Origin: a virus
Virus record (IMG/VR): IMGVR_UViG_3300027758_000008
Span: 9,524 to 73,523 of that record
DNA length: 64,000 nucleotides
Reading direction: 5' to 3' (one strand)
Under the pieces are notes generated by a model. That model had not been told where the DNA came from, did no database searches, and saw only the letters and a list, made by a program, of their open reading frames with translations. The number at the start of each line of letters is the position of its first letter. Within the stretch, counting starts at the first letter, position 1. A program made the position numbers and the translations under genes. Shown one piece after another: positions 384 to 55,127 of the stretch.

Positions 384-412
384 ATTTTAGCCACTGGTCT
401 AACCACTTACAA
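384..412 (-). promoter_or_regulatory. Sigma70-like portal promoter TTGTAA-17-TAAAAT with a FadR-like box (395..405) in the spacer
   Basis: Read directly from the minus strand; identical copy at 39903..39931. Confidence 0.7.
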
Positions 413-6386: not shown

Positions 6387-6664
6387 ACCTCACCCCGCGC
6401 TTTTGCTAGCAGTTGCTCAACCTCGTCATGGCTAAAATCCTCCATGCCGTAAGGTTGCGTTAACTTTTCAAGCATCGCATACATATCCGGTGCCGCTGCT
6501 ATTAGGTGGGCGTTACAGTGAGACTCTTCGCTTATGTTGCATCCTGTATGGTCTGGGTCAAATCCCCACACTGTCCCAACAGTACCCGACATTGAATTAA
6601 TTTCAATTAAGCCTCCTTCGTCATTTACCGTCCACTCGCCTTTCGTAAATTTAGCCTCACTCAT
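6383..6664 (-). CDS. Conserved phage hypothetical protein
   Basis: FTKGEW...NAHLIAAAPDM motif common in phage accessory genes. Confidence 0.7.
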   Translation of the reverse strand: MSEAKFTKGEWTVNDEGGLIEINSMSGTVGTVWGFDPDHTGCNISEESHCNAHLIAAAPDMYAMLEKLTQPYGMEDFSHDEVEQLLAKARGEV

Positions 6665-6849
6665 TTCCTCGCACTCCAACTCTTCTTAGCCTTATGTATC
6701 GCCGTAAATGCTTCGATATTATCGTTAACCACGCGATACGCGTATTGCGGGTGACAACCTACCGCATTGGATAGTGACAGCACCGTGCGATGTTTACCCG
6801 TTTTAGCCTCTGCGATGATTGCAGGTGCTATTGTGCCGTATCGTTTCAT
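6661..6849 (-). CDS. Small putative HTH protein
   Basis: LSNAVGCHPQYAYRV; near-identical at 44105..44293. Confidence 0.65.
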   Translation of the reverse strand: MKRYGTIAPAIIAEAKTGKHRTVLSLSNAVGCHPQYAYRVVNDNIEAFTAIHKAKKSWSARK

Positions 6850-7004
6850 TACTCTTCCTCACAGTCCAGTATCTCGGCGCCGTACCAATAACTGTCAACG
6901 TACTGTGCTTTCGCATGTGCCATTGCTTTGGCGTCATCCGCATTATCAGCCTCAACCCACAATTCATCTTCCATCATCATTTGTGTTTTTACTAAATATT
7001 TCAT
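6849..7004 (-). CDS. Hypothetical acidic protein, 51 aa
   Basis: Hand-translated MKYLVKTQMMMEDELWVEADNADDA...; conserved at ~44293..44448. Confidence 0.65.
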   Translation of the reverse strand: MKYLVKTQMMMEDELWVEADNADDAKAMAHAKAQYVDSYWYGAEILDCEEE

Positions 7005-7165
7005 ACCCTACCCCCATTCTCTGCGTATTTGCGCATAAGTTCTGGATGATTGAAAATCTCAAATGCTACCTTGTGCGTTTTCAACCCAGTTACCTGCGCG
7101 ATTTTAATGTAACTCCGTGCGCCGTCTTGTAGTGCGGCGCTCACTTTACGGTAGTGTTTGTTCAT
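7001..7165 (-). CDS. Small putative HTH protein, 54 aa
   Basis: Hand-translated MNKHYRKVSAALQDGARSYIKIAQVTGLKT...; conserved in B with synonymous changes. Confidence 0.65.
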   Translation of the reverse strand: MNKHYRKVSAALQDGARSYIKIAQVTGLKTHKVAFEIFNHPELMRKYAENGGRV

Positions 7166-7566
7166 ATGAAGTCAGACCAATCATAACCAACCGGCATTTC
7201 TTCCGACATGACGATATGGCTATAAATTTCATCCATGGCGACTTGGTTAAACTTACGCTCCACCATCCCTGATGTTGACTCATCCGCGAACGACTTTTCT
7301 ACCAACTGACGCGCAAATGTATCATCTTCAATCATCGAGCCGATGACAGTGTAATCAGACACAATATGCGTATTCCCGCAGTAACGCCAGGTCAGCGTTT
7401 TCTGGTCTGCAACGCGCTCTGCCAGCTTCTCGGCGATATACCATAGATTTTCATTGCTGATGCTGTCATAAGTCATTGGCGTTGATTCTGGCTTGTCTGG
7501 TAGCTGTCTGTCGTATGCGGTTTGGTGTTGCTCGAAATTCATCTTCATTTCCTCCATTAGTTTCAC
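7162..7566 (-). CDS. Hypothetical protein (true start probably ~7548)
   Basis: ORF; homolog at 44606..44992. Confidence 0.7.
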   Translation of the reverse strand: MKLMEEMKMNFEQHQTAYDRQLPDKPESTPMTYDSISNENLWYIAEKLAERVADQKTLTWRYCGNTHIVSDYTVIGSMIEDDTFARQLVEKSFADESTSGMVERKFNQVAMDEIYSHIVMSEEMPVGYDWSDFI

Positions 7567-7568: not shown

Positions 7569-7604
7569 ATTATAACGGGTTAATTTTGTTTTGTGGTTTG
7601 ACCA
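7569..7604 (-). promoter_or_regulatory. FadR-like box (7594..7604) - 19 nt - TATAAT promoter
   Basis: AACTGGTCAAACCAC on the minus strand; identical at 45357..45392; followed by a GGAGG RBS. Confidence 0.75.
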
Positions 7605-7605
7605 G

Positions 7606-7809
7606 TTAGTCTAAGTCTGGAATAACTACAAATCGAACAATATAGCCGTCGCTGCGACTAAACCATTCACCTTCTACAACTTCAAAATTTCCATTTGTGA
7701 CGGTACTTCCTGTCAGTATAAAGTTATCACCGTGGGCATGATGAAAAATATCACCATGCTTTACATCGTCGTCAGGACCTAAAACTCTAGCTTTAACTTC
7801 CGGCATCAC
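7606..7809 (-). CDS. Hypothetical protein
   Basis: ORF coupled to the upstream gene. Confidence 0.6.
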   Translation of the reverse strand: MMPEVKARVLGPDDDVKHGDIFHHAHGDNFILTGSTVTNGNFEVVEGEWFSRSDGYIVRFVVIPDLD

Positions 7810-8335
7810 TTCACCTCAAACTGTTCTAGATATTCATCTGGGTCAACAACAAACCGACCTTTCATCCATGCGTGATAAGCCTTAATTGCATCGACCTCAG
7901 CCTTGCTGATGGTTGGTTTGCGTTTTCTTAAATCCTCTTTCTTGACAACAAAAATATCGTTATCCTCATTGGCAACACACACAATACCACCCCGACCTTC
8001 GTAAACAACTTTGACTAAATCTGAACTTCCGACAAGACCAAACACTTCTTCACCCTTCCTACGCTCCACCTCTGCTTCGAATTCTTCGCGGGTGCAGACT
8101 TGGTAAAAGTTGAAGCATGATTCCCAATCGGCAAGCCAACTCACCCACCCTCTGCCATAATCAAAACAGATTACGTCGCCACCCTCATCAGGCCAAACCC
8201 CATCAAAATAATCAACCGCATCACTAACCGTTTTGCGTGGCGACTCCAAACTAACCGCATACTCAGCCAGTACGCGAATTGGTCTGTTGATTTAAAGCCC
8301 TTTGCTTTCTCGATTAACTCAGTTGGTCGTTTCAT
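7806..8335 (-). pseudogene. Frameshifted hypothetical gene (homolog of 45582..46133)
   Basis: The MKRPTELIE start at 8335 is out of frame with the PRKTVSDAV...VCTREEFEAEVERRKGE body; span is 530 nt; continuous in B. Confidence 0.6.
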
Positions 8336-10480: not shown

Positions 10481-10666
10481 TCAAGTATGCCCTAATGAAT
10501 TTCGTTTGCAAGTACTTTTCGTTATTATTTTATCTGGTCGTACCACTTCACACTCACACCCTGGAAACCGTTCCCGCAAACTCTGCTCGATGTCGTCGGC
10601 ATCGGATAGCATGGCGAATTGGTATTTTTTGCCTTTGTAGGTCAGTTTTATTTGGTAGGGTTTCAT
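10481..10666 (-). CDS. Hypothetical protein
   Basis: Homolog at 46963..47133; marks the left edge of the replication module. Confidence 0.65.
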   Translation of the reverse strand: MKPYQIKLTYKGKKYQFAMLSDADDIEQSLRERFPGCECEVVRPDKIITKSTCKRNSLGHT

Positions 10667-17797: not shown

Positions 17798-17830
17798 TAA
17801 GGCAAGCCGGCTCAACAGGGCCGGCTCCAC

Positions 17831-17866
17831 TGGTCAAACCACCTTGGCGCGTAGAGATGGTATATT
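17831..17866 (+). promoter_or_regulatory. FadR-like box (17831..17841) - 19 nt - extended -10 TGGTATATT
   Basis: Identical at 54886..54921; followed by GGAGG. Confidence 0.75.
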
Positions 17867-19493: not shown

Positions 19494-19669
19494 GTCAGGG
19501 TGTCTTATTCGGATACAGTGAAACATATTACGAGATACACGCGTATCTAATTGATGTCTGCTCGTATTCTAACGAGGCTGCACATGATTACATTTTAGAG
19601 GCTTGCCCGCATGTGCTGGCGCATGATTTTGTGCCAGCGCCCGTTACAAGTTTGGAGTATGAAGAATGA
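19490..19669 (+). CDS. Hypothetical protein, 59 aa
   Basis: Hand-translated; overlaps its neighbours by GTGA/ATGA. Confidence 0.55.
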   Translation: MSQGVLFGYSETYYEIHAYLIDVCSYSNEAAHDYILEACPHVLAHDFVPAPVTSLEYEE

Positions 19670-19851
19670 CCAAAAACACAGGCAAAGCATCGTCGCCAGG
19701 ATACCGAAAAGTCGCGACAATATACTGCCCAATCTACGGCTACGAGATAGAGCGCACTATTTGCGAGCACGACGATGTTTGGCTTGTTGACGTTTGGGGC
19801 GTTCCGTATCGGTGGGAGTGGGTGAAATCAGTGAAGGTGTATTGGCGATGA
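19666..19851 (+). CDS. Hypothetical protein
   Basis: First 12 aa identical to 56162..56365. Confidence 0.6.
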   Translation: MTKNTGKASSPGYRKVATIYCPIYGYEIERTICEHDDVWLVDVWGVPYRWEWVKSVKVYWR

Positions 19852-20117
19852 ATATGGAGCCGTTTAATTTTTGCATACAATGGATGGTGTACGATTATTT
19901 GCCAACCCTGAAAACCGGAGACTTCCTACCTGGTCAACTTTGCATGCCCGATAGGATAGGCGTTGAGCGAAAGACGTATCGAGAAGTGTTACGCGTTCTG
20001 GATTTCCATGGAGTTATAAGTGTCAAGCATGGCAAACCCACAAAGTTCATAAGCCTTAACAAGCCTGGACTGCTGTACGTCATGGAGCGTAAAGGCTTAA
20101 CTGGTCAAACCACATAA
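19848..20117 (+). CDS. FadR-like (GntR family) winged-helix DNA-binding domain only, 89 aa
   Basis: GDFLP...IGVERKTYREVLRVLDFHGVISVKHGKPTK aligns by eye with FadR GTILP...[30 protein letters not shown]; no effector domain. Confidence 0.8.
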   Translation: MNMEPFNFCIQWMVYDYLPTLKTGDFLPGQLCMPDRIGVERKTYREVLRVLDFHGVISVKHGKPTKFISLNKPGLLYVMERKGLTGQTT

Positions 20118-20137
20118 TCGAAAAATGGTGGTATATT
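20102..20137 (+). promoter_or_regulatory. FadR-like box (20102..20112) - 19 nt - extended -10 TGGTATATT
   Basis: Counterpart at 56690..56725. Confidence 0.75.
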
Positions 20138-20185
20138 AACCACACTAACAACACCGCAGCAGTATCGCGGATAACGGAGATACTC

Positions 20186-20362: not shown

Positions 20363-20369
20363 TTTCAAC

Positions 20370-31496: not shown

Positions 31497-31540
31497 ATTC
31501 TAACTGGTCAAACCACTAGACGCAATATTTATGGTATTGT
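31497..31540. promoter_or_regulatory. Dual element: minus-strand TTGCGT-17-TAGAAT with the box (31505..31515) in the spacer; plus-strand box-19-TATTGT
   Basis: Both geometries read directly from the sequence. Confidence 0.65.
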
Positions 31541-35570: not shown

Positions 35571-35581
35571 AGCTGTCTCAC

Positions 35582-35617
35582 TGGTTAGACCACTTGTTAC
35601 GTACAGTTTACTATAAT
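35582..35617 (+). promoter_or_regulatory. FadR-like box (TGGTTAGACCA, 35582..35592) - 19 nt - TATAAT
   Basis: Upstream of the antisense cassette. Confidence 0.75.
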
Positions 35618-39902: not shown

Positions 39903-39931
39903 ATTTTAGCCACTGGTCTAACCACTTACAA
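39903..39931 (-). promoter_or_regulatory. Portal promoter TTGTAA-17-TAAAAT with the box (39914..39924) in the spacer
   Basis: Identical to 384..412. Confidence 0.7.
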
Positions 39932-41026
39932 GCCCAATCGCTTAAATACTGTCGATTCCTCTTGCTCAAGCTCGTTTAATGTGATTGTGCGTCCTGTCAT
40001 ATCCGTGAATTTGGATAGCGATAATTTACCGTCAAGAAACAATTTAGCCCTTGTGGTGCCAAGCGATGATTCAACAAACCATCTAGGCTGTCTGCGCAAC
40101 CATGCCTCGTGGCTGGTATCGCTTCTAACTGTTGTCGGGTCGAATGCGTCTTTGTCGCGCTTGCCTCGATACTTGGGTTTGCCATCTGTGCGGGCTTCTT
40201 TCTTCTCAAACGCCTCTTTTGCTGCCGGTCCTGATTTACCGCCTATGGCAACCTGCTGACCTGTTAGCTCGAATCCTTCGGGCCCATAGATTAGTGTGCT
40301 ACGACAAAAATAGTGGAGAGGAGGAACCGGTAACTTCGGGTCATCAGCCTTAAACCGTTTTTTAGAATTGTTGCGACATATCAAACTAGTCCGATTATCC
40401 CACACAGCAACGAATATCGCTTCCTGATAGTACTTAGGGTGCGCAGATACATTGGCTCGTCTCGCCTGTTGTACGTAATGCGTGAAGGCTGTTCTGGCTA
40501 ATGACTCAGCGCGGGTTTTCAGTGTGCCGTCAAACTCAGCGCGGATATTCTTTATCACCTGATTAACTGTCTCGGCGCGTGAATAGCCCTGTCGAACCAT
40601 TGACATAATGCGCTGATTGCGTCCGGCGTTATTACCAGTGATGAATTCATCCCAGAAGCCAGCCTGCTTTGACTGCTCCATGACAATCATTTGCTCGCCG
40701 ATAAACGATAGGATTTCATTTCTCGCCGGTGGCGTTAGCTCAGTATTGCGAAGCATGTAACGCACTTCATACAATGCCGCCTCTTGCATATCCTTGGTGT
40801 AATCGGCCCAGCCTGAGTTCAATTCGATGATGCGTTGTATGCGCTTCTCGATAGTCTCAAGCTGTTTTGGCGTGCGTGGTAAGCCGCCGTCAAGAATAAG
40901 CAGCCTGATTAACCGGTACGTTTCCTCTAACCCTGGATACACAGACGCGTTGATATACCCTGAATTTAACCTATCAAGGTATACCTCGTGCATTAATTGT
41001 GCGTCTAGGTTTATTGTGATTGTCAT
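39926..41026 (-). CDS. Head morphogenesis protein (gp7/gpF family), second copy
   Basis: Same length as 407..1507 with a handful of amino-acid changes. Confidence 0.85.
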   Translation of the reverse strand: MTITINLDAQLMHEVYLDRLNSGYINASVYPGLEETYRLIRLLILDGGLPRTPKQLETIEKRIQRIIELNSGWADYTKDMQEAALYEVRYMLRNTELTPPARNEILSFIGEQMIVMEQSKQAGFWDEFITGNNAGRNQRIMSMVRQGYSRAETVNQVIKNIRAEFDGTLKTRAESLARTAFTHYVQQARRANVSAHPKYYQEAIFVAVWDNRTSLICRNNSKKRFKADDPKLPVPPLHYFCRSTLIYGPEGFELTGQQVAIGGKSGPAAKEAFEKKEARTDGKPKYRGKRDKDAFDPTTVRSDTSHEAWLRRQPRWFVESSLGTTRAKLFLDGKLSLSKFTDMTGRTITLNELEQEESTVFKRLGL

Positions 41027-42405
41027 CCAAACCTCGGTGCGGCTGCTGGTTTATTATAGTTTATTATCATATCTTGGACAGCATCCATCATAGGGTCTAT
41101 TTGGTCATCATGCTTGCCGTTAGGGAATAGTGAATGCTCACGGATAAACTCAGGTAAGAATTGCGAATCTCTAGGAAGAAATACGCGCCCAGACTCTATT
41201 ACCGGAGCAGCGTCATACGCTCTAGTAATTTTATCTCTGTTCCTTTGTATATCGCCAACTAGCATTCTTTTTTGCCTCATCTGCTGGATAAGCCCTGTTC
41301 CGCTTGCTTTGTCCTCTATCTTCATTCTTCTTAGGTTACCATTTTTATTAGATGAATGCTTCATCCAAAACATTTCTGCCATCTGCAATAATTGCGGTGC
41401 TTCCCATTTACCTCTAAGTTGGTCTATAAGATAAATGCCGCCTTCCGATTTACCCCAGCACTGAAAAACAGAATAGTCGTTTTCTTCGCCTGTCTTTTGG
41501 GCGGTATCCGCATAAATCATTCTATATTCAAACTCAGGCTCTTTGTCGTAAAACCTCCACCAATCATCCTTAAATATGCCGCCTCCAATAGGGCTAGGCT
41601 CCTGCATCATCTGCCCTGAAAACATGTAAGTGTTGGATGCTCTAAGCCTGTGCAAATCTTCAGTGACAAATTGTCCATCCCAAAACGTTTTGTCGCTTTC
41701 GTCAAGCGCAGGTATCTTAATATGTTCCCAATCTTCGCCGTTTCCGCCATTTAGCAAGAAGCCGCTCAAGTCGTCCTCATGCAACCTTTGCATGATAACA
41801 ATGATTGGTGTGTCTGGTGAGTTCTTACGGCTCTCCATGGTGGTGCTAAACCAATCGATGACATTCTGCCTCATAGTATCACTGTTAGCTTCACCAGCCT
41901 TGTGTGGGTCATCTATGATTATTGCTCCGCCAAAGTAATCGCGCATCTTCCCAGCGCCATACCCCGTAATTGTGCCTTCTGCGCCAGTAGCGTAGACAAT
42001 GCCGCCATCTGACGTTCTGAATTCATCCTTGGCTCTTGAGTCGTTCTGCATCATCACATGCGGGAATATCTCGGCGTATTTCTCGTGCTGCATTATTGCG
42101 CGTGTTGCATACGCGTTTGCTGTAGCAAGTCGCTTTGAGTACGACGCGTGAATAAACTCAGAATCAGGGAAGTTACCCATGCACCATGCCATAAAATTAA
42201 TCACAGCTAACTCTGTTTTACCTGAGCGTGGCGGCACGTTTATTATAAGTCTCTTTATTTGCCCAGTAACGATACGCTCAAGTGCATTGCATATTATGTC
42301 TTGGTGCCAATTATGCTTTAGGTCAGCGCCTTTTCTTGCGCTGAATAGCGTGCGGGTAAACATGAGTAAATCTGTGCGGTTATCAGCTATCTCATTCGGC
42401 GTCAT
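41023..42405 (-). CDS. terL: Terminase large subunit, Terminase_6-type
   Basis: INVPPRSGKT, IIIDDPHK, IMQRLH, YADTA, IEDKASG, HDDQIDPM. Confidence 0.95.
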   Translation of the reverse strand: MTPNEIADNRTDLLMFTRTLFSARKGADLKHNWHQDIICNALERIVTGQIKRLIINVPPRSGKTELAVINFMAWCMGNFPDSEFIHASYSKRLATANAYATRAIMQHEKYAEIFPHVMMQNDSRAKDEFRTSDGGIVYATGAEGTITGYGAGKMRDYFGGAIIIDDPHKAGEANSDTMRQNVIDWFSTTMESRKNSPDTPIIVIMQRLHEDDLSGFLLNGGNGEDWEHIKIPALDESDKTFWDGQFVTEDLHRLRASNTYMFSGQMMQEPSPIGGGIFKDDWWRFYDKEPEFEYRMIYADTAQKTGEENDYSVFQCWGKSEGGIYLIDQLRGKWEAPQLLQMAEMFWMKHSSNKNGNLRRMKIEDKASGTGLIQQMRQKRMLVGDIQRNRDKITRAYDAAPVIESGRVFLPRDSQFLPEFIREHSLFPNGKHDDQIDPMMDAVQDMIINYNKPAAAPRFG

Positions 42406-43102
42406 ACTTTGCGCCCTTACTTAAGTTGTCTTTAGCCCATAATGGCTGTAGATTATCTAAAGCGTTTATAACTTTTGGATCTGTTTCACCCTCTGAAATA
42501 AAGACAGATACGGGCTTTATATGGTCAATATGCCATTCTCCGTGATTTTTCCAGCTCATCCCCTCAGTGAACTTTGATTCCATGTTTGCTCTCAACTCAT
42601 CTTTTGAGTATCCAAGCTCTAATTCTGTTTTGGTTTTCTTCTTTCTGCCAGTTATTAGAATTATTCTTGCAAGAAGTTTTCTGCACAATATGTAAGGCTT
42701 GTTGTCTGGGTTTGCATTGAATTTTCTAGAGTATCTTCTAGATATAGACCTCCTTTTCTCAGGATTGTCACTAGCCCATTTAGCCGCGTACTCTATCTTT
42801 TTTTGTTTCGCATTTTGATATTCTTTTTGTCTGCAACCTGGATTGTCCCTTCTCCATTTTGCCGCCCTTTCTATTGCTGCCTGTTTGTTTTCTTGGTAGT
42901 ACTTCTTTGACTTCTCTCTGTATTCAGGGTCTCTTTCCAGCGCCCTTTTGTATAAAACATCATAACCTATCTCTGCCGCCTTTTTGTTGTTATACGAGTT
43001 CCTGCAAGACTTGCAGTGCGACATTTTGCCTGATTTTTTTGATTTGCAATTATGGAAGTCATCGAGTGACTTGATGGTTTTACATTTTGTGCATTGTTTC
43101 AT
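42392..43102 (-). CDS. HNH endonuclease (free-standing, homing-type)
   Basis: WHIDHIKP...NLQPLWAKDNLSKG; N-terminal CxxC pairs. Confidence 0.85.
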   Translation of the reverse strand: MKQCTKCKTIKSLDDFHNCKSKKSGKMSHCKSCRNSYNNKKAAEIGYDVLYKRALERDPEYREKSKKYYQENKQAAIERAAKWRRDNPGCRQKEYQNAKQKKIEYAAKWASDNPEKRRSISRRYSRKFNANPDNKPYILCRKLLARIILITGRKKKTKTELELGYSKDELRANMESKFTEGMSWKNHGEWHIDHIKPVSVFISEGETDPKVINALDNLQPLWAKDNLSKGAKYDAE

Positions 43103-43197
43103 GTGACACCTCTGCTAAAGGTTAGCTTGAAGGGATTGCGGCAACCACTAGCAAGGTGGATTTCGTCTGGCCGGACTAGCCGCAACTTTGATTATAC

Positions 43198-43620
43198 TTA
43201 CTTGTGTTTATTTCTCAATGCTTCAAGCACAGCTTGGCTGTTGTCTTTTGGTGACATAGTACCATCGGATGATTTGTGGTCGATTTCCTGCTTGGCTGAA
43301 TGGTGCTTGCTTGCCATGCGCTCAGCAGCCCACTTGTAAGCATCCATCATCACTTTTGCAGCTTGCGGCTCAATCATGCCGCCTTCAATCATTTCAGCGA
43401 TATCAATCATACGGTCAGCGTGAGCAAAACCAGCAGCTTCTCTCGCACTTGCGTATTGTGCCCAAAACTCAGGCTTTCCAACTATCCAGCGGCACACAGT
43501 AGACGTAGACGGCTTTGATTCTATACGGCAGTACTCGCGCAATGATTTACCGCCAGCGATATGCTCACATATCTCTTTCGCTATTTCATCTGAGTAAATT
43601 GTAGGTCTGCCACCGGCCAT
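43198..43620 (-). CDS. terS: Terminase small subunit, Sf6 gp1-like
   Basis: GRPTIYS...ICEHIAGGKSL...STVCRWI...KWAAERM. Confidence 0.88.
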   Translation of the reverse strand: MAGGRPTIYSDEIAKEICEHIAGGKSLREYCRIESKPSTSTVCRWIVGKPEFWAQYASAREAAGFAHADRMIDIAEMIEGGMIEPQAAKVMMDAYKWAAERMASKHHSAKQEIDHKSSDGTMSPKDNSQAVLEALRNKHK

Positions 43621-43670
43621 ATAATCAACACCGTTAATTAGTCAGCCTTAAATATACCACATGATAGGAT

Positions 43671-43697
43671 AAAAAAAAGCCCTGCGGATAACAGGGC
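43671..43697 (-). terminator. Intrinsic terminator upstream of terS (copy B)
   Basis: Same as 4743..4769. Confidence 0.8.
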
Positions 43698-43760
43698 AAC
43701 TGGAGGGGAAGAAACAAAATGATTTACTCACTAACACCATAGCGGGTTAGTTGTGTGGTG

Positions 43761-43940
43761 TCAATCATTAACCACTAACGGCTGATAACTAACACCTACC
43801 GGCAACTGCATAAAGTCCAGTTCATATTCGCTATACATCCATTGTTGAAATGCGTGCTCGGCTTCTTGGAGATTGCGTGCGTCGTATATGTCGCACGAGT
43901 ACTCCTTGCCGCTGATTGTTGTAGATGCGCGGTAGTTCAC
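43761..43940 (-). CDS. Hypothetical protein (homolog of 4833..5012)
   Basis: GTG start at 43940. Confidence 0.7.
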   Translation of the reverse strand: MNYRASTTISGKEYSCDIYDARNLQEAEHAFQQWMYSEYELDFMQLPVGVSYQPLVVND

Positions 43941-44108
43941 GACAACAACCCCCCAACCCAGCATAAACAGCCACACAGCCCACCCGAAACACGTCGCCGC
44001 AACATTACCTTTCGTCTGCTCGATATACTCACCCTATGCAAGCTCAAGCGATGCCCAGGCTATACCGGCGAATGTGACTACCATGTATGTGTAATAGAAT
44101 TCGTTCAT
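43937..44108 (-). pseudogene. Disrupted homolog of 5854..6024
   Basis: TAG in place of TGG at 44034..44036, and G6 versus G5 at ~43949..43954. Confidence 0.75.
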
Positions 44109-44293
44109 TTCCTCGCCCTCCAACTCTTCTTAGCTTTATGTATCGCTGTAAACGCTTCGATATTGTCGTTTACCACACGATACGCGTATTGTGGGTGACA
44201 GCCTACCGCATTCGATAATGACAGCACCGTGCGATGTTTACCCGTTTTCGCCTCTGCGATGATTGCAGGGGCTATTGTGCCGTATCGTTTCAT
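44105..44293 (-). CDS. Small putative HTH protein (homolog of 6661..6849)
   Basis: One amino-acid difference. Confidence 0.65.
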   Translation of the reverse strand: MKRYGTIAPAIIAEAKTGKHRTVLSLSNAVGCHPQYAYRVVNDNIEAFTAIHKAKKSWRARK

Positions 44294-44605
44294 TCCTCTT
44301 CCTCACAGTCCAGTATCTCTGCGTCGTACCAATAACTGTCAACGTACTGTGCTTCCGCATGTGCCATTGCTTTTGCGTCATCCGCATTATCAGCCTCAAC
44401 CCACAATTCATCTTCCATCATCATTTGTGTTTTTACTAAATATTTCACACCCTACCCCCATTCTCTGCGTATTTGCGCATAAGTTCCGGATGATTGAAAA
44501 TCTCAAATGCTACCTTGTGCGTTTTCAATCCCGTTACCTGCGCGATTTTAATGTAGCTACGTGCGCCGTCTTGTAGTGCGGCGCTCACTTTGCGGTAGTG
44601 TTTGT

Positions 44606-44992
44606 TCATAGAAAGTCTGACCAATCATAACCAACCGGCATTTCTTCAGACGTAACGATATGATTATAAATCTCGTCTTTCGCCAACTTGTCGAATAGCT
44701 CTTGATTCAACTGCCCGATATCAGTGCCAGCCATTGATATTGCAATCAGCCTGCGCATTTCTTCCGACTCGCACATAGAGCCAATAACGGTTCCTCGTGA
44801 CACGATGTGAGTGTTATTGCAGTATCTCCACTCCATCGATTTACCATCTGCAACGCGCTCTGCCAGCCTCTCGGCGATATACCATAGGTTATCATTGCTG
44901 ATACTGTCATAAGTCAGTAGCGTTGCTTCTGGCTCGTCTGGTAACTGTCTGTCGTATGCGGTTTGCAAGTTTGTGAATTTTAAGCCGGTCAT
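44606..44992 (-). CDS. Hypothetical protein (homolog of 7162..7566)
   Basis: Shared QTAYDRQLPD and EEMPVGYDWSDF. Confidence 0.7.
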   Translation of the reverse strand: MTGLKFTNLQTAYDRQLPDEPEATLLTYDSISNDNLWYIAERLAERVADGKSMEWRYCNNTHIVSRGTVIGSMCESEEMRRLIAISMAGTDIGQLNQELFDKLAKDEIYNHIVTSEEMPVGYDWSDFL

Positions 44993-44994
44993 AA

Positions 44995-45330
44995 TTAAAG
45001 CCACCTCTTTTCGCCGTTGGTGAAGTGAATGCAAACTTCCTTCCCTTCCTTCATCCAGCGCATAAAATTAAATTCATCTTCCAGCAAATCTGTGCCGGAG
45101 TACATTGGCGACTCTGTAGCATCGCTATCATCGCATTCGTACCACCTTTCGCCACAGCATGGACAATAGCCACTTTTTCCGCCTTCAAAATCCCCAACAA
45201 GGAATAGCAACTTTTCATTAGCTTCATGCGACGAGTTAGCCTCAATAATAACGTGACGAGTAATGCCGTCATCCTCGTCAAAATCAAAGTGACCGCCGCT
45301 GTTGTTTTGCGTAAAAGTATAAAACGCCAT
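44995..45330 (-). CDS. Conserved phage hypothetical protein
   Basis: FTQNNSGG...CPCCGERW motif. Confidence 0.75.
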   Translation of the reverse strand: MAFYTFTQNNSGGHFDFDEDDGITRHVIIEANSSHEANEKLLFLVGDFEGGKSGYCPCCGERWYECDDSDATESPMYSGTDLLEDEFNFMRWMKEGKEVCIHFTNGEKRWL

Positions 45331-45356
45331 TTTCATCCCCTCCATTAGTTTCACCC

Positions 45357-45392
45357 ATTATAACGGGTTAATTTTGTTTTGTGGTTTGACCA
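45357..45392 (-). promoter_or_regulatory. FadR-like box (45382..45392) - 19 nt - TATAAT
   Basis: Identical to 7569..7604. Confidence 0.75.
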
Positions 45393-45393
45393 G

Positions 45394-45585
45394 TTAGTCG
45401 TCGCACCAAGCCTCGACATCTTCCCATTCGCCGTCTTGAATATCCCCTTTACTCATTATGTTGCCAACAATATCTGTACCAAAGTCTTCTAGGTCATTTT
45501 GAAACTCGTCGAATTCCTCCTCTGTCATATCTACCACTTTTGAGTACCTGATTATTTCTGTCGCCGTAATTCTTACTTTCATCAC
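45394..45585 (-). CDS. Small very acidic protein
   Basis: D/E-rich ORF. Confidence 0.6.
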   Translation of the reverse strand: MMKVRITATEIIRYSKVVDMTEEEFDEFQNDLEDFGTDIVGNIMSKGDIQDGEWEDVEAWCDD

Positions 45586-46133
45586 TTCACCTCGTAGTTT
45601 TCAAGAATGTAAAATGGCGATGCATCTTCGCTAACAGCCTTATTCCAAGCCTCAGCCTTGCTGATGGATGGTTTGCGTTTCTTCCATGTTGCGCTTGAGC
45701 CAGACTTGCTTACACGCTCCCACTCAAAACCGTTGGCATCGGTTATAATGTACGGCAAACCCTCGCTGACATCTTCGTGCGGGTCTTTTTCACCCTTCCT
45801 CCGCTCTACCTCTGCTTCGAATTCTTCGCGGGTGCAGACCGTATCACTTACTTTAACTCTGGTTAGCGCAAAATTATAACCAGTCCAAGATACGTATTTA
45901 CAATCTTCTGCTCGACTTGGCCATTCGAATTTAAAAGCTTCAACCGCATCGCTCACCGTTTTGCGTGGTTGTGTGGCAGCGTTATAGCCAGTCGATTTTT
46001 CGTTAACCGATACTGGCTGAATTCTGGATTCTATGTAATTAATCCAGTCATAAATTTTTTCTGCATCACCGTGATTCAATTTAATTTCTGGAAAAGTATC
46101 TAGCATTTCGATTAACTCAGTTGGTCTTTTCAT
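45582..46133 (-). CDS. Hypothetical mosaic protein
   Basis: Shares several blocks with 7806..8335. Confidence 0.7.
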   Translation of the reverse strand: MKRPTELIEMLDTFPEIKLNHGDAEKIYDWINYIESRIQPVSVNEKSTGYNAATQPRKTVSDAVEAFKFEWPSRAEDCKYVSWTGYNFALTRVKVSDTVCTREEFEAEVERRKGEKDPHEDVSEGLPYIITDANGFEWERVSKSGSSATWKKRKPSISKAEAWNKAVSEDASPFYILENYEVK

Positions 46134-46486
46134 TTCCCTTCCTCCAATTTCTCTAACCGAACAGCTAAAACCTGCTCGCCGTTTACAGGCAACCGCCCTT
46201 TTGACTTAATCCATACCTGGCCGTCTTTGTCGATTAATGCGCCTGCTTTAATCCAGCGGCGTAGTTGCGTGTCAGCTATACCAGTTTCTTTTACTGCGCG
46301 GTATACGCTGCCGTAGGTTTGTTTGATGTGTTGTGATAGTGGTGCAAGTGAGCAACCTCTAACTCTTGTCAACTCATAGTCAACCTCCACTATCACCTCA
46401 TCTTCAATTAACGGGCAAGGTCCATTTAACGCAGCCTCAGCGCAGGCAACCATTAATGCCCAATCTTTTAAACATTGATCATTCAT
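46130..46486 (-). CDS. Chimeric HTH-like protein
   Basis: Middle matches 9044..9259; end matches 8517..8660. Confidence 0.65.
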   Translation of the reverse strand: MNDQCLKDWALMVACAEAALNGPCPLIEDEVIVEVDYELTRVRGCSLAPLSQHIKQTYGSVYRAVKETGIADTQLRRWIKAGALIDKDGQVWIKSKGRLPVNGEQVLAVRLEKLEEGK

Positions 46487-46692
46487 GCTTCATCCACCAC
46501 AAATTGAATATTTGCCCACTGCAATACATATGTGTCTATTTCTTCACCATGGCTGCTGCAGCTAAATCCGCTGCCATCATAAGTGACAACTTCATACCCG
46601 TGTTCAGACCATAGCGGACAATAAGCAAGTATTGTCGAGTACTTCGGGATAGGGTGAACCCCATCGTTTTTGTGCCATTGTATTTTGTACAT
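46483..46692 (-). CDS. Hypothetical protein
   Basis: ORF; DUF551-like pattern (weak). Confidence 0.55.
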   Translation of the reverse strand: MYKIQWHKNDGVHPIPKYSTILAYCPLWSEHGYEVVTYDGSGFSCSSHGEEIDTYVLQWANIQFVVDEA

Positions 46693-46708
46693 AAAATAAA
46701 ACTGCAGC

Positions 46709-46924
46709 TTATTGGGCTGCAGCCATCCAATCCTGGGTTAGGTTTAAATTTTCAACTGAAACATCGTTAAAGGTTCTAAAACATTTTCCAGCAACGTACC
46801 AGCGTAACTGAGGGTTGCACTTACGGCCTTTTGCTTTATAGCCAGTCTTTACCACTTTAAAAGCGCGCTTACCTTTAGGCGTTAAATCTGCAGTTGTGTT
46901 GATTACGATAGCTGGCATCTTCAT
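46709..46924 (-). CDS. Hypothetical protein
   Basis: GAGGAG RBS; upstream TATAAT. Confidence 0.65.
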   Translation of the reverse strand: MKMPAIVINTTADLTPKGKRAFKVVKTGYKAKGRKCNPQLRWYVAGKCFRTFNDVSVENLNLTQDWMAAAQ

Positions 46925-46962
46925 TTATTATCTCCTCTAGTTGATGATTCAATTATACCTAC

Positions 46963-47133
46963 TCATTTTTGTTTGTCTACACTTTTTTGTGTTTTATTCT
47001 CTGGCCGTACCACTTCACACTCACACCCCGGAAACCGCTCCTGCAAACTCTGCTCGATGTCGTCGGCATCGGATAGCATGGCGAATTGGTATTGCTTGCC
47101 TTTGTAGGTGAGTTTTATTTGGTAGGGTTTCAC
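46963..47133 (-). CDS. Hypothetical protein (homolog of 10481..10666)
   Basis: Hand-translated from GTG at 47133. Confidence 0.6.
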   Translation of the reverse strand: MKPYQIKLTYKGKQYQFAMLSDADDIEQSLQERFPGCECEVVRPENKTQKSVDKQK

Positions 47134-47381
47134 TCAATACGACCCACATACAGCTTCCCGTCAACAACTTTTGTTTTGAATTTATAGCCAATATCGCTGG
47201 CTATTTTGCTTAGATTCATTCTAAATCTTGATACTGGCCTATCGCCAATATTTACAATTTTTAAATCATCAACTTTCATATCTTCAACTTGCGACTTAAC
47301 AAAGTTTCTGTAATTCATGCTTTCCATTTTTCCAAAAAAATCTGTGGCTTTCATATATAAATCTCTAGTTGTTAAATTCAT
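47130..47381 (-). CDS. Hypothetical protein, possibly DNA-binding
   Basis: Basic ORF next to the putative origin. Confidence 0.55.
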   Translation of the reverse strand: MNLTTRDLYMKATDFFGKMESMNYRNFVKSQVEDMKVDDLKIVNIGDRPVSRFRMNLSKIASDIGYKFKTKVVDGKLYVGRIE

Positions 47382-47384
47382 ATT

Positions 47385-47710
47385 TATTATTTCAAATAAT
47401 ACCTAATCCATCAACAATATTATGAAATAGTAAGAGTTAGTTTTTTAACCACTATCTCTTAACTATAATAAACTCTTTATAATACATATACTTATAACTA
47501 CTATAATAAGACATAGTGACATAGTAGAGATAGTTATAGATATATTTTAGTAGTAGTAAAAGTAGTGTATAAGTGATTTTCTATCTCTTTTAGTAGTGTT
47601 ATTTTTATATGTATCTTAGGAAAATCCACTATCTCTACTATCTCTTCTAAGTCTATGATTTCATTAAACTTTAAGACATAGTGGCTTTCACTATCTCACT
47701 ATCTCTTAAA
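47385..47710. repeat. Putative replication origin B: AT-rich with (A)CTATCTC, GAGATAGT and GACATAGT repeats
   Basis: About ten related 7-8-mers in both orientations downstream of the primase gene. Confidence 0.65.
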
Positions 47711-47722
47711 TGAAAAAAGGCG

Positions 47723-49975
47723 CTAATGCGCCTTAATTCGATATTTCACAGTTTTTCGCCGGTTCCTGTTTTCTGATTCATACTCATAATTTTCTACCAG
47801 TCCTTTTTCGGTTAATGCCTCCAGAACGCTTCTGACCTCCTCTTTTTTGTGCGGCCTGCAGCGGTTAAATATAACACCCTGAGTTTCACCGTCAGCGCTG
47901 TTTTGTAGTATGTCTTGAATTTTTACGGCGATAGAATCGTTTGGCGACTCGTCTTTAGTAATGTTAGAAAGCGCCAGTCGCATTTTACGCTCGCAATCAG
48001 ACTTAGCTAATGCGTAAGCCCATTCTACGTGTTCAAGCGTTCTAACGCCTTCGCTGATAGATAAAACGAAGCTGACCTTTGCGCATAGCTCATAGCCACG
48101 TCTAGGGATAGCTTCCAATCCGCTGTCTTTCGCATCCTCTGCCATTTGCCAGAACTCGTCTATTATTTCATCAAGCCTGTCTGCAGCATCATCCATTGTG
48201 CTAATTGGCTTTTTGTCTGCGTAGTTTTCTATGCGCGTTCCACCCAACACGTCAAACTCGCCTAATGCGAACAGCTGGCTTAATTGCGCTGCCAAGTGCG
48301 CTGGTAGTTCTTTTTGCGTGCGTTTTCGGTTTGGTTTCGGATTGGTCTCAGGTTCGTCAAATATCATTGCGCGTGATAAAAACCCGTTAGTGGCTGTCTC
48401 AAAGTCAATCAGGCTATTAAAGGTGACGGGCGTTGTGTAGCCTATAACAGAAAGAAACGGAGCCTCGATGCCGCTTGAAATATTATTAAGTGCGCGTTGT
48501 ATCTGTGGAACCCTCCTGGCGCATACGCCGCTTGAATCCTCATTTTCTTCTATGCGCTTTTCACATGATGACAATTCATTTTGTAGCTCTACGCGTAACG
48601 CCTCCTTTACGTCTCCACTAACGGGAAGGAATGAATCTGCTTTGCTGTAGCCACTCATAATTAAGCCGATAACACCCTCAAGGTATGACGCGTTGCGGCT
48701 GTTCATTATCTTACGCAGTACCAGTCCCATCTCGTCGATGCTATAGAAAGCGGCCTGGTGTCGAGTAAGGTTTCTTACTATTTCTTGTTCCGACTTAATG
48801 GCGCCATGCATCGCATCAATTAAACCTGCTGCGCGTAAACAGTCAGCGAAGCATTGCTGTATATGCTCTTTGCCAGTGGAGGAGCCAGCAACGCAGAAGC
48901 TAATAAGATTTGCGGTCATACCGTCGCGCTCGTCGATGTATTTTAGGCCAGCTATATTGCCAACCGCCTGAAGCGCTGCAGCAACTGCCAGGTTTTCGCG
49001 CTTGTAACGTGAGCTATCGTTTATCCATTTTGCAATCTCTCCCACAAGACCAGGCGGGCGCTTCAAGTCAACCATTGGATTAGAACCGGTTGGCTGCTCG
49101 TCGTATTCAAAGGTCACTGGCTGTTTGTATCCGCCCTCTTCTGCGTAATGAATAAGCGTGCCCATTTGAACTGGGTTACTGCATTTACCAAAGCTGTGCC
49201 AGTGGCGCTGTATGACATCAAAGCCAGGGTACTTTTCGCCTCGACTGCTCCATGTATCGAATATGTCGATACCATCACCGTTAAATGTGTGATGGATAGC
49301 CATGCCGCATCGTATCCAGGTATCGTAGTCAGTGTCTGGTGAAATGTAAGACAGGATATCCGAACACTGTTGCTGTGTCATATCAATAACGCCACGGGGG
49401 GTGTGGGCGCGATATGTGTCTGGTTTCTTTAGTAGCTGCAGCAAACCGGCAGGAGGATCTGAAATGTCTGACGCGCTACCATGCAGGACTTCATACTCCA
49501 TGCCGCTTTTATGTAACGAAGATGGACCAACTACATACCCGCTACTTTTAAAATCAATACCTCTGTATTTCTCATGATGCTGCTTTAGTGCGGCGCCACT
49601 GCCATTTTTAAAGTAAAGGTGCATGGAGCCATTCCCGCTACCTGTAGCAACTACTAGTCCGGATTCACTTAACAAGTCGCAGTCAAGGTCGTGACAAAGC
49701 TTCACAAACGAGTCCACACCGCCATTCCTTGCATCAACATCTATTACTAGTAAACCAGATACCAGAACACCGTAACCGGTAGAAAAGTGGCCCATTTCCT
49801 CCATGGTTTCTAATTGCTCGTCTGACCAATCTGGGGTGTGCTGCCAATTGCTATTGCATGGGTGCTTTCCTATAGCCTCACATTCTTGGTCTCCACAAGC
49901 GCACTTGCCATTAATAATTTGGTGCAAGCCAAATACCTTGTAGCCTTCTTCCACGAAGTCGTAATGATTAGCCAT
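47723..49975 (-). CDS. Primase-polymerase with PriCT_2 and helicase-like domains
   Basis: CACG...GKHP, LVIDVDARNGG, GMAIH...WS...GEKY, GSSTGKE, SIDEMG. Confidence 0.85.
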   Translation of the reverse strand: MANHYDFVEEGYKVFGLHQIINGKCACGDQECEAIGKHPCNSNWQHTPDWSDEQLETMEEMGHFSTGYGVLVSGLLVIDVDARNGGVDSFVKLCHDLDCDLLSESGLVVATGSGNGSMHLYFKNGSGAALKQHHEKYRGIDFKSSGYVVGPSSLHKSGMEYEVLHGSASDISDPPAGLLQLLKKPDTYRAHTPRGVIDMTQQQCSDILSYISPDTDYDTWIRCGMAIHHTFNGDGIDIFDTWSSRGEKYPGFDVIQRHWHSFGKCSNPVQMGTLIHYAEEGGYKQPVTFEYDEQPTGSNPMVDLKRPPGLVGEIAKWINDSSRYKRENLAVAAALQAVGNIAGLKYIDERDGMTANLISFCVAGSSTGKEHIQQCFADCLRAAGLIDAMHGAIKSEQEIVRNLTRHQAAFYSIDEMGLVLRKIMNSRNASYLEGVIGLIMSGYSKADSFLPVSGDVKEALRVELQNELSSCEKRIEENEDSSGVCARRVPQIQRALNNISSGIEAPFLSVIGYTTPVTFNSLIDFETATNGFLSRAMIFDEPETNPKPNRKRTQKELPAHLAAQLSQLFALGEFDVLGGTRIENYADKKPISTMDDAADRLDEIIDEFWQMAEDAKDSGLEAIPRRGYELCAKVSFVLSISEGVRTLEHVEWAYALAKSDCERKMRLALSNITKDESPNDSIAVKIQDILQNSADGETQGVIFNRCRPHKKEEVRSVLEALTEKGLVENYEYESENRNRRKTVKYRIKAH

Positions 49976-49976
49976 G

Positions 49977-50216
49977 TTATTGCTCCACCCAAGTTAACAC
50001 GTCTGGCCGCAACTCCTCTTTTTTGAAGTAGCCTTTTGTCAGCCTTTCAACTTCTATAGCCATGGTCGCTGGTATCCTCCCTCTTTTTTCCCAATACTGC
50101 ACAGCTTGTCTTGTTACGTTAAGCTGCTCAGCAAGCCTGGCCTTACTTCCTACCCATTCTATGAGCCGGTTAAGCTCAACCCTTTGCTGTATCTCTATAT
50201 GTTTAGCTGATTTCAT
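49977..50216 (-). CDS. Cro/YdaS-like HTH regulator
   Basis: GSKARLAEQLNVTRQAVQYW...ELRPD. Confidence 0.8.
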   Translation of the reverse strand: MKSAKHIEIQQRVELNRLIEWVGSKARLAEQLNVTRQAVQYWEKRGRIPATMAIEVERLTKGYFKKEELRPDVLTWVEQ

Positions 50217-50255
50217 ATTTTTACCTGATGTTTTACATTTTATTTTACAAAGTGT

Positions 50256-50285
50256 TTGACAAGCATAATTCAATAGTTCTATGAT
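50256..50285 (+). promoter_or_regulatory. Sigma70 promoter TTGACA-18-TATGAT
   Basis: Followed by TACAACC, as at 15976..16011. Confidence 0.7.
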
Positions 50286-50318
50286 TACAACCGTTGAAGA
50301 GAGAAAGAGGAGGATATT

Positions 50319-51083
50319 ATGTCTTTACTATCAACAGTGTCTAAACCAAAAAACCGGCCTGTCATAGCCACTTTTCTAGGTGACTCGGGCCTTGGCAAAA
50401 CATCAACCGCCGCAACATTCCCAAAGCCAATTGTTATTCGTGCTGAGGATGGACTGCAGGCAATCCCAGAAGCGCATCGCCCTGATGCATTCCCAACATT
50501 AACCAAAGTCGACGACTTATGGGAGCAATTGACAGCGCTAGTTAAAGAGGAGCACAACTATAAAACATTGGTTGTTGATTCTGTTACTGCGTTAGAGCGT
50601 TTATTTATTCAGCATGTCATTGAAAGTGACCCAAAACAGCCTCGATCAATCAACCAGGCATTAGGCGGATACGGTGCGGGGCTTGCAGCAGTGGCAGCCA
50701 TGCATCAGCGTGTGCGAAAAGCGTGTGGTGTCCTAAATGAGCGCAAAGGTATGCATGTTGTATTTATCGGCCATGCCGACACAGAAACGATTGAGCTGCC
50801 AGACCAGGACGCTTACACGCGGTATAGCTTGCGCCTTGGTAAGAAGTCAGTAGCGCCTTATGTTGATGATTCTGACATTGTAGGCTTCATTAAGCTAACC
50901 ACATTCACTACAGGCGATGGTGAGCGCAAAAAGGCAATTTCTGACGGAAGCCGTCAGCTTGTTTGTTATGCGACTGCCGCAAACGTATCAAAAAACCGCT
51001 TTGGCATTACGGATGATATTCCTGTTGAGCTAGGCAAAAACCCATTAGTTAACTTTGTTCCATCATTAAAAGAAGGTAAATAA
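50319..51083 (+). CDS. Sak4-like AAA ATPase recombinase
   Basis: GDSGLGKT, TLVVDSVT, FIGH, KNRF. Confidence 0.8.
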   Translation: MSLLSTVSKPKNRPVIATFLGDSGLGKTSTAATFPKPIVIRAEDGLQAIPEAHRPDAFPTLTKVDDLWEQLTALVKEEHNYKTLVVDSVTALERLFIQHVIESDPKQPRSINQALGGYGAGLAAVAAMHQRVRKACGVLNERKGMHVVFIGHADTETIELPDQDAYTRYSLRLGKKSVAPYVDDSDIVGFIKLTTFTTGDGERKKAISDGSRQLVCYATAANVSKNRFGITDDIPVELGKNPLVNFVPSLKEGK

Positions 51084-51085
51084 TT

Positions 51086-51607
51086 ATGTCATTTTGGAAT
51101 CTATCAGATAACAGCGAAAACCTGCAAAACAACAACGGAACATTCGACGCTGGCGGCGGCGAAATGGAGCCAATCCCAAAAGACACGCAAGTAAAGGCGG
51201 CGTGTGAAGAAGCTAAGTGGGATTCATACGAAGGTGATGAATACATCAATCTTAAATGGACGGTCCTGGCGCCAGCGGAATATAAAAACCGCAAAATCTT
51301 TCAGAAAGTGCGCGTTATGGATTCTGACACCAAAAAAGCGGACAAGGCAAAGCGTATGCTTGCTGCGATTGCCGCCAATGCTGGTGGCGGGTTATTGAAA
51401 GTTGAAGGCAAGCCGACCGATATGGACCTGCAAAAGAACCTAGCAATGAAGCCCATGGCGCTAACACTGCAGGTGTGGGAGATTGAAAAATCAGACGGCA
51501 CGGGCAAGGCAAGTGGAAATTGGGTGCAGCAAGTGGCGCCATTAAAAACGCAAGCGCCAGTTGAAGAGGCGCAGAAAGGTAGCGTAGACCCAGATTTGGG
51601 CTGGTAA
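51086..51607 (+). CDS. DUF669-like ssDNA-binding protein
   Basis: EPIP...YINLKW...YKNRKIF; acidic tail; follows Sak4. Confidence 0.7.
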   Translation: MSFWNLSDNSENLQNNNGTFDAGGGEMEPIPKDTQVKAACEEAKWDSYEGDEYINLKWTVLAPAEYKNRKIFQKVRVMDSDTKKADKAKRMLAAIAANAGGGLLKVEGKPTDMDLQKNLAMKPMALTLQVWEIEKSDGTGKASGNWVQQVAPLKTQAPVEEAQKGSVDPDLGW

Positions 51608-51645
51608 TTTTAATGGGCGGTTCGCCGCCCTATATAGGAGGATTT

Positions 51646-52485: not shown

Positions 52486-52486
52486 T

Positions 52487-54316: not shown

Positions 54317-54716
54317 TTACGGCGACATGGAATTTAGGGGCAAATGCCCATTAGAAAGCGCTGAGCAGATAACGCTATTTAATATTATCAGAAAGCGTTA
54401 CCCACAAGCTATCCATCCGAGAAATGAAGGAAAGAGAACGCACAACCAAGTTAAGCGTCAAAAAGCGGAAGGTATGACGCCAGGCGCGAGCGATTTAATT
54501 ATACCTGCAGCGGTATGTTTCGTTGGTGAATTAAAGCGACAGGATCACACGCAAAGCGTTTGGCAAGATGGGCAAATAGAGTATTTAGAAAATGCAAAAA
54601 ATGACGGCGCATTCGTATGCGTGGCGTTTGGATATAAAGCAATGTTAGAGGCCATAAGAGAATGGGAAGAATTGAACAATCAAATCAAATTGATGATATC
54701 TTCGAAGGAAAGTTAG
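54291..54716 (+). CDS. VRR-NUC domain nuclease
   Basis: HPRNEG, GASDL, ELK. Confidence 0.8.
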   Translation: MKIPKWLPSYGDMEFRGKCPLESAEQITLFNIIRKRYPQAIHPRNEGKRTHNQVKRQKAEGMTPGASDLIIPAAVCFVGELKRQDHTQSVWQDGQIEYLENAKNDGAFVCVAFGYKAMLEAIREWEELNNQIKLMISSKES

Positions 54717-54925: not shown

Positions 54926-54942
54926 GAAATGGAGGGGAAATT

Positions 54943-55125: not shown

Positions 55126-55127
55126 TT

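Follow-up and report, generated by a model that had tools for sequence, protein, structure and literature searches.

We describe a small gene in a marine phage sequence, the IMG/VR record IMGVR_UViG_3300027758_000008, together with the repeated promoter boxes that surround it. The window analysed is a stretch of 64,000 nucleotides (nt), bases 9524-73523 of the 73.5-kb record (G000 1-73523), and all positions given below are those of the window. The gene, which we call mini-FadR (P0001), lies at 19848..20117 on the plus strand. Translation of its open reading frame (ORF) gives 89 amino acids (aa) plus a stop, including IGVERKTYREVL and GVISVKHGKPTK, and the product resembles the DNA-binding head of the bacterial regulator FadR. 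Its start codon and the stop codon of the preceding ORF, 19666..19851, share the four letters ATGA. The final codons, TTA ACT GGT CAA ACC ACA TAA, spell LTGQTT* and contain one of the boxes (CTGGTCAAACCAC, 20101-20113). The frame, its motifs and the box in the last codons are all present as they were described in the initial annotation of this DNA. Mini-FadR is the last of a run of genes on the same strand, headed by another box promoter at 17830, and the record has no other GntR-type protein.

The record is two mosaically related phage genomes meeting at a head-to-tail junction. Self-comparison gives the order as the tail of copy B, then the whole of copy A (39,519 bp), then the head of copy B. 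Copy A is window 1-39519, and copy B is the 9.5 kb preceding the window plus window 39520-64000. The blocks shared by A and B are about 85-100% identical, and whole modules (terminase, replication genes, accessory cassettes) have been exchanged between them. The junction may reflect a true heteroconcatemer, or else two strains that occurred together and were joined during assembly. Copy A encodes terminase, head-morphogenesis, capsid, primase, helicase, exonuclease and methylase genes.

Mini-FadR occupies a variable cassette slot, 19703..20097 (+), delimited by blastn of A against B and by metagenome contigs. The left edge of the slot is a conserved 38-nt ORF start (19665-19702, 100% in the A/B blastn), and the right edge is a conserved promoter block from 20098 (A/B blastn block 20091-20139, 98%). 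In copy B, the A/B comparison places an ORF of 117 aa in this slot (56352..56705, +) that is unrelated to mini-FadR and matches no Pfam or PHROG family. It nevertheless terminates in KGLTGQTT*, like mini-FadR, because the promoter block, with its box at 56689-56701, is shared.

Likeness of the protein to FadR

The first evidence comes from sequence searches. The six best PDB sequences for the single 89-aa protein are all FadR (E 8.6e-6 to 1.2e-5). A family profile returns the same top six at 35.3-35.8 bits, covering FadR 8-72, and these originate from E. coli, V. cholerae and V. alginolyticus FadR. The next PDB sequence with the profile is a Corynebacterium FadR-subfamily protein at 33.1 bits. 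Among NCBIfam models the top two are the FadR equivalogs TIGR02812 and NF003444 (33.8 and 33.6 bits, model positions 26-73), followed after a 12-bit gap by GlcC at 21.9 bits. The cut-offs of the two equivalogs, 249.2 and 189 bits, are not reached. Pfam GntR (PF00392) scores 20.8 bits (E 3.1e-4, residues 21-66) with a gathering cut-off of 27. By sequence, then, the protein is a divergent member of the GntR superfamily.

A structural model built with AlphaFold2 (AF2) from an 18-row alignment has a mean predicted local distance difference test score (pLDDT) of 86.8. It has the winged helix-turn-helix (HTH) fold of the GntR superfamily, three helices and a two-strand wing, with helices predicted at 5-20, 33-37, 41-53 and 73-81. 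The initial annotation had proposed a comparison of predicted structures, and FadR entries fill the ten best places when Foldseek is run with the AF2 model against the PDB. The V. cholerae FadR-DNA complex (4p9u_A) matches the model with a root-mean-square deviation of 1.4 Å over 67 columns. Fourteen PDB matches have E<=1e-3, and every one among the matches listed is a GntR-family protein. FadR comes first by PDB sequence, by NCBIfam and by PDB fold, and the best matches are not the generic GntR proteins that the initial annotation had named as the competing outcome; the margin is modest.

The likeness extends to residues known to matter in FadR. BLASTP aligns the protein, ungapped, to residues 28-84 of E. 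coli K-12 FadR (taken from the K-12 genome) with 22 of 57 positions identical (39%), query residue i corresponding to FadR residue i+4. E. coli FadR has the same wing, HGKPTK, at residues 65-70. One study (PMC4259882) gives seven DNA-contact residues, R35, T44, R45, T46, T47, R49 and H65. Four of the seven are kept (R45, T47, R49 and H65, at query R41, T43, R45 and H61), and G66 and K67 are kept too, at G62 and K63. The other three are altered: R35 to L31, T44 to E40 and T46 to K42. This agrees with what had been claimed of the wing and of the kept and differing positions. The same source reports that W60, F74 and W75 are necessary for FadR binding.

The protein ends at about FadR residue 93, where the linker begins, so the acyl-CoA effector domain is absent, as had been claimed; the AF2 model contains no second domain. 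The description of the protein as a FadR-type winged-helix head that lacks the acyl-CoA sensor domain is supported by the alignment and by the predicted structure.

Mini-FadR is one of a small family of proteins. Among 1.84 billion representative proteins searched, 35 match at E<=1e-3, the best being P0002 (94% identity, 101 aa as called), P0003 (49%, 85 aa), P0005 (49%, 89 aa) and P0004 (45%, 100 aa), and after these two other mini-proteins of 72 and 76 aa. The five family members of 85-101 aa, all stand-alone, have 23 invariant columns, which include the HGK of the wing and FadR R49/E50. Copies with 94-99% identity were found on several contigs of different sources. This sharing of columns by clusters that have diverged to 45-49% identity, together with the near-identical copies, was counted as a sign of selection on the protein. 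NCBIfam FadR ranks first for four of five other mini-proteins, the exception being P0003, for which GlcC is first. Scored per domain, the mini-proteins P0009 and P0011 reach 45.6 and 41.3 bits, the 232-aa FadR-like protein P0012 reaches 39.3, and true FadR reaches 27.8 (E. coli) and 34.7 (P0033). MocR-like matches of 44-50 bits, above FadR, were rejected; their score is made up of two stretches and is only 22-27 bits per domain. Among the 46 proteins examined, the HGKPT wing occurs in mini-proteins and FadR-like proteins only.

A maximum-likelihood tree was built from 35 domain rows and 69 columns, after dropping 13 rows that were near-duplicates or non-GntR repeat matches. It contains a FadR clade of five rows with support 90/88, from which the mini-proteins are excluded. 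In this phylogeny, a check suggested by the initial annotation, the mini-proteins adjoin the FadR clade, behind a weak 59/71 split, and are not inside it. We conclude that this FadR-type head comes from an old, independent lineage rather than from a recently truncated host fadR. Short GntR-only proteins make up 22 of the 30 nearest Atlas clusters, and the commonest phylum in the top cluster is Uroviricota. Viral contig scans with the protein or the family alignment found no relatives. A genome contig scan gave two distant GntR loci, in metagenome-assembled genomes of Clostridia and Actinophytocola. A metagenome contig scan gave 72 loci, each matching the generic recognition-helix region alone; none of the 72 spans residues 1-9, the site of the family's N-terminal PF(D/N)F motif.

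The boxes, with and without the gene

The sequence TGGT-N3-ACCA occurs 13 times in the record, seven times in copy A and six in copy B, and all seven copy A boxes read CTGGT-N3-ACCAC. With up to one mismatch, CTGGTCAAACC has nine matches against 0.75 expected. The composite of TGGTNNNACCA, 19 nt and TANNNT has eight matches in the window against 0.02 expected, and none of 100 shuffles reaches eight. The bare 15-mer AACTGGTCAAACCAC matched singly at least 109 times, which is chance level. Five of the copy A boxes have TATAAT, TGG-TATATT or TGG-TATTGT at a distance of exactly 18 nt downstream, and a sigma-70 scan called no -35/-10 promoter at the box sites. With a transcription start assumed about 7 nt past the -10, the centre of the box would be at about -37 and its span would be -43 to -31. 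The core of the E. coli fadB operator, read from the genome, is TGGT-N3-ACCA, the same as the phage boxes. The FadR activator site is described as overlapping the -40 region of fabA in PMC3462791, and the fabA site itself is the weaker AACTGATCGGACTTGTT (E. coli fabA region; probe sequences in PMC4537474).

Two box promoters bear directly on mini-FadR. The one in its 3' end (20101..20137, +) consists of the box CTGGTCAAACCAC at 20101-20113, 18 nt and TGG-TATATT, with the -10 at 20132-20137. The other (17830..17866, +), with the -10 TATATT at 17861-17866, heads the gene run. Two further candidates near the boxes were tried and rejected. The minus-strand TTGACC within the box was considered as a leftward -35, and there is no -10 at 16-18 nt from it. 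The other candidate was a gene-specific operator, GTGGT-N6-ACCAC at 20128-20143, and the block containing it, 20098-20184, is kept in contigs that lack the gene.

A scan with a longer pattern found five more IMG/VR records with box promoters. Each has three to six CTGGT-N3-ACCAC and none of the reversed control pattern. One of them, G010, is complete at 39.4 kb and has hardly any structural or replication genes in common with copy A. The block at 20101 is kept in B, G007, G010 and the contigs of runs X9 and X10, and the promoter at 17830 is kept in B, G007, G008, G009, G010, X9 and X10. In general, a promoter block of about 50-90 bp, comprising box, spacer, -10 and leader, is near-identical between phages that share few other genes. 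The blocks 17827-17886 and 20098-20184 edge swapped cassettes as if they were recombination linkers.

The gene and the boxes do not travel together. The gene search recovered its own record as a positive control with E 1.9e-50, and G010 has no Pfam GntR match. Logan contigs of four other marine runs were compared over 17700-21200. Bins 19806-20039 are uncovered in all four, and in contigs of three of the four the gene is missing from the slot or the slot is skipped, with the promoter blocks kept. In the X9 and X10 contigs, blocks 17827-17886 and 20098-20184 are kept with 0-3 changes, the latter with 1-3 changes in contigs that have no gene at the slot. Three more genomes, G001-G003, were found through the exonuclease and have 75-81% nucleotide identity in the replication module. 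They have no exact box and no mini-FadR gene, with 0, 0 and 1 TGGT-N3-ACCA cores, and this joint absence was counted in favour of a link between gene and boxes.

The reverse separation is found in Alteromonas phage P24. A tblastn of the 89-aa protein over 50,697 phage records matched this phage alone, with 37.7% identity across 53 aa. Its protein AZU97337.1 (MK241539.2, 11035-11259) is a 74-aa stand-alone FadR-like winged helix annotated as hypothetical. As with mini-FadR, its best NCBIfam models are FadR (42.7 bits vs 25.2 for the next). Unlike mini-FadR, it keeps ERE and TRTT, has the wing QGKPT and has no C-terminal helix.

We take from these comparisons that the mini-FadR gene is accessory and the boxes are not. 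The initial annotation had proposed co-occurrence across phages as a check, and the two separate in both directions, with boxes and no gene in B and the other box phages, and a similar gene and no boxes in P24. By their distribution the boxes are independent of the gene, being present without it in B and in 5/5 of the other IMG/VR box phages. The initial annotation's account of copy B, an unrelated gene in the slot with every box kept, is right about the 117-aa gene and overstated about the boxes: copy B keeps 6/7 of the copy A boxes exactly, and the seventh (A 10534) is degenerate, CTGGCC... at 47001.

Proposed function and its alternatives

We give slightly better than even odds (about 0.55) to the reading that mini-FadR is an effector-blind FadR-type head working on FadR-type boxes, as a mimic or a competitor of host FadR. 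The protein would be a stand-alone head made of helix 1, the HTH, the wing and one short C-terminal helix, and it would bind TGGT-N3-ACCA operators. On the phage these operators would take the place of the -35, about 37 nt upstream of the presumed start, where FadR sits when it activates fabA. One box promoter would head the gene's own operon, and another would be written into its last six codons. Because this is the only GntR-type gene, in a box-headed operon, with a box at its 3' end and FadR-type palindromes at the promoters, binding to the phage boxes and to host FadR operators is the most economical function, and we consider it probable. Since the boxes persist without the gene, their regular reader must be something else. 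Host FadR is the simplest candidate because the sequence of the site, its activator position and the working of the promoter blocks in unrelated phage backgrounds all fit. In that case mini-FadR would be an optional extra, sitting on those sites and probably on the host fad/fab operators as well, at any acyl-CoA level. It might substitute for FadR once fatty acids release FadR from DNA, or it might compete with it. The sequence does not decide between a ligand-blind stand-in that would activate and a competitor that would block. A broader scenario, which we hold only tentatively, is that mosaic marine phages run most of their non-early operons through host FadR as an activator, and that some have captured a sensor-less head that keeps these promoters firing and the host fad/fab genes frozen at any acyl-CoA level.

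A number of observations weigh against the preferred reading. On the side of the protein, the Pfam GntR score of 20.8 bits is below gathering, R35, T44 and T46 among the seven contact residues are changed, and W60, F74 and W75 have become V56, L70 and N71. FadR functions as a dimer, whereas dimer formation by the 89-aa protein is only putative. Generic FCD-type GntR proteins score 35-37 bits per domain, only 2-4 below the best FadR-like protein, and in the tree the mini-proteins are beside the FadR clade, behind a weak split, rather than nested within it. On the side of the boxes, the right half of every one is ACCAC and not the ACCAG of a perfect palindrome. As to their association, copy B has boxes without the gene, and a member of the mini-FadR family is found in 0/5 of the IMG/VR box phages, including the complete G010. 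A 36,976-bp X10 contig has 95 letters replacing the 395 of 19703-20097, and an X7 contig likewise skips the slot. The P24 genome is not enriched in boxes, with two TGGT-N3-ACCA against one of the reversed control and no AACTGRTCNNA. Finally, the reading presupposes that the host possesses FadR.

Several of these points would be expected if mini-FadR were a generic small GntR-domain phage regulator with its own operator, its likeness to FadR and that of the boxes being family-wide with no specific tie to host FadR. GT-N-AC palindromes are the operators of many FadR-subfamily regulators, and short proteins with nothing but a GntR domain are common, as seen in 22/30 of the nearest Atlas clusters and in a top cluster mostly from Uroviricota. 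The low Pfam score points the same way, as do the per-domain scores, in which FCD-type GntR proteins (35-37 bits) come between the best FadR-like protein (39) and true FadR (28-35), and so does the placement of the mini-proteins outside the FadR clade. We still regard this explanation as rather unlikely. Three independent rankings put FadR at the top, in NCBIfam by a margin of 12 bits, the HGKPT wing is confined to the mini-proteins and FadR-like proteins among those examined, and it would be a coincidence for the sole GntR-type gene to sit in a phage with CTGGT-N3-ACCA promoters. Less likely by far is that the gene is a functionless passenger or a decaying cassette gene in this phage. The slot is hypervariable, swapped or nearly empty in relatives, but the frame is intact, the start is coupled to the upstream stop, and the fold is confidently predicted (pLDDT 86.8). 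Moreover, homologues at 45-49% identity keep the wing and the recognition helix, and near-identical copies are on several contigs of different sources.

A different division of labour would have a conserved phage-encoded activator reading the boxes, in the manner of Mu Mor/C or T4 MotA, with mini-FadR aimed only at host FadR operators to reset fad/fab. Phages usually control their late genes with a factor of their own, and here the late packaging and head operon is under a box promoter. Small HTH-like ORFs, 6661-6849, 7001-7165 and 9044-9259 (all minus strand), are in every box-bearing genome examined. The first of these (62 aa, 6661..6849) is 93-98% identical in B and G006-G010, and ORFs 7001..7165, 7162..7566 and 7806..8249, adjoining the 7605 box promoter, are also shared. 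P24, with its mini-FadR-like gene and no boxes, fits this scheme as well. The small conserved ORFs are possibly phage regulators and candidate readers of the boxes, but none of them matches a family, the Atlas leads for the 62-aa ORF are weak (0.81-0.87), and the core of the box is a FadR/GntR-type palindrome. G010, which has promoter blocks in common with A and hardly any structural or replication genes, fits a host-supplied reader too. We consider this division of labour a little less probable than the generic regulator. The initial annotation had the boxes read mainly by a host factor; a reader other than mini-FadR is what the comparisons uphold, and as readers the conserved small phage ORFs are just as available as a host factor.

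If the protein does bind FadR operators, it would be a natural ligand-blind FadR, with a virus uncoupling a metabolic regulator of its host from its signal. It would also give a handle on whether the FadR-box promoters of marine phages depend on host FadR. At 89 aa it would be a minimal FadR-type DNA-binding module for recognition of TGGT-N3-ACCA without the dimerising sensor domain. The override of host control, should it be true, would mean that a virus bypasses a metabolic checkpoint with a copy of its host's regulator that is blind to the ligand. The promoter system to which the gene points is more striking than the gene itself. In the portions accessible to us of open-access papers and bioRxiv preprints, we found no report of a natural phage FadR head or of natural FadR-box phage promoters.

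Known systems, other boxes and neighbouring genes

The closest known proteins are the gamma-proteobacterial FadRs (PDB 1E2X, 1H9T, 1HW2 and 4P9U), with which mini-FadR shares helix 1, the HTH and the HGKPTK wing. FadR is about 239 aa with an acyl-CoA domain, whereas the 89-aa protein lacks that domain and is phage-encoded. Short GntR-only proteins, including YtrA (PDB 4R1H, 2EK5, 3NEU), are like it in being small winged helices with no ligand domain, and several Atlas clusters of these are of 90-109 aa, one of them mostly from phages. Structures of the YtrA type have Foldseek template modeling (TM) scores over the query of 0.66-0.72, with identities of 15-21% vs 26-33% for FadR. YtrA proteins have two C-terminal helices for dimerisation. 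The 89-aa model differs in having a single 9-residue helix, 73-81, after the wing.

For the promoters, the nearest parallels are fabA and fabB of E. coli, Shewanella and Vibrio, which according to PMC3462791 and PMC4537474 have a FadR-type site over -35/-40, a -10 and a poor -35. Unlike these, the phage boxes have perfect TGGT/ACCA cores, as in the fadB repressor site, and by our own reading of the fabA -10 they lie about 2 bp nearer the -10. The activator-dependent Mu Mor/C and T4 MotA middle promoters pair a normal -10 with a conserved box, set at a fixed distance from it in place of a -35, and the proteins that read those boxes are phage-encoded and have other folds. The box here differs in being a GntR/FadR-type palindrome for which the only matching phage protein is optional.

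The remaining boxes of copy A are placed as follows. The promoter 7569..7605 (-), with its box at 7593-7605 and the -10 TATAAT at 7569-7574, is directed leftward, into small conserved ORFs and the genes for packaging and the head, and it is found in B and 5/5 of the IMG/VR box phages. At 35581..35617 (+), CTGGTTAGACCAC with the -10 TATAAT stands ahead of an island of small plus-strand ORFs. The promoter 31504..31540 (+), with TGG-TATTGT at the -10, lies between tail-region genes of the minus strand and is antisense to them. The sole plus-strand ORF that follows it, of 74 aa, is doubtful, and the promoter may serve to make an antisense RNA or may be a landing pad that stands empty. Two boxes have no -10 at promoter spacing. 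One is CTGGTCTAACCAC, 394..406 (+), between the head-morphogenesis and portal genes, with a copy B counterpart at 39913-39925. The other is CTGGTCGTACCAC, 10534..10546 (+), located within a conserved 61-aa ORF (10481..10666, minus strand) and kept in G006, G007, G009 and G010 with a different central triplet. The copy B boxes in the window (span 39913..56725) are 39913-39925 (+), 45381-45393 (-), 54885-54897 (+) and 56689-56701 (+).

Megablast of 18500-21500 and blastn of the two promoter blocks gave no match in the 50,697 phage records. Tblastn of the primase and capsid against the phage database gave only distant phages of many hosts, and so point to no single host. None of these searches turned up a closely related cultured phage. 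Six sequencing runs, from one year and labelled as marine sediment metagenomes, contain at least 93% of the sampled words of 17700-21200; one of these may be the source sample itself. No RNA run is among the runs listed for that region.

The first gene behind the 17830 box promoter, 17874-18596 (+), encodes a 240-aa pentapeptide-repeat protein whose 15-nt DNA periodicity produces long spurious antisense ORFs, and in contigs of runs X7 and X9 it is replaced by five letters. Two lambdoid-type accessory genes are found within this otherwise unclassified marine phage, encoding a NinH-like small protein (19197-19493, +, Pfam 34.7 bits) and a NinX-like one (6021-6386, -, 35.2 bits). Between the terminase and head-morphogenesis genes, a 486-aa ORF (1507-2967, -) matches phage lipase/esterase PHROGs with E of about 1e-15, which is notable in a phage that is possibly wired to a lipid regulator of its host.

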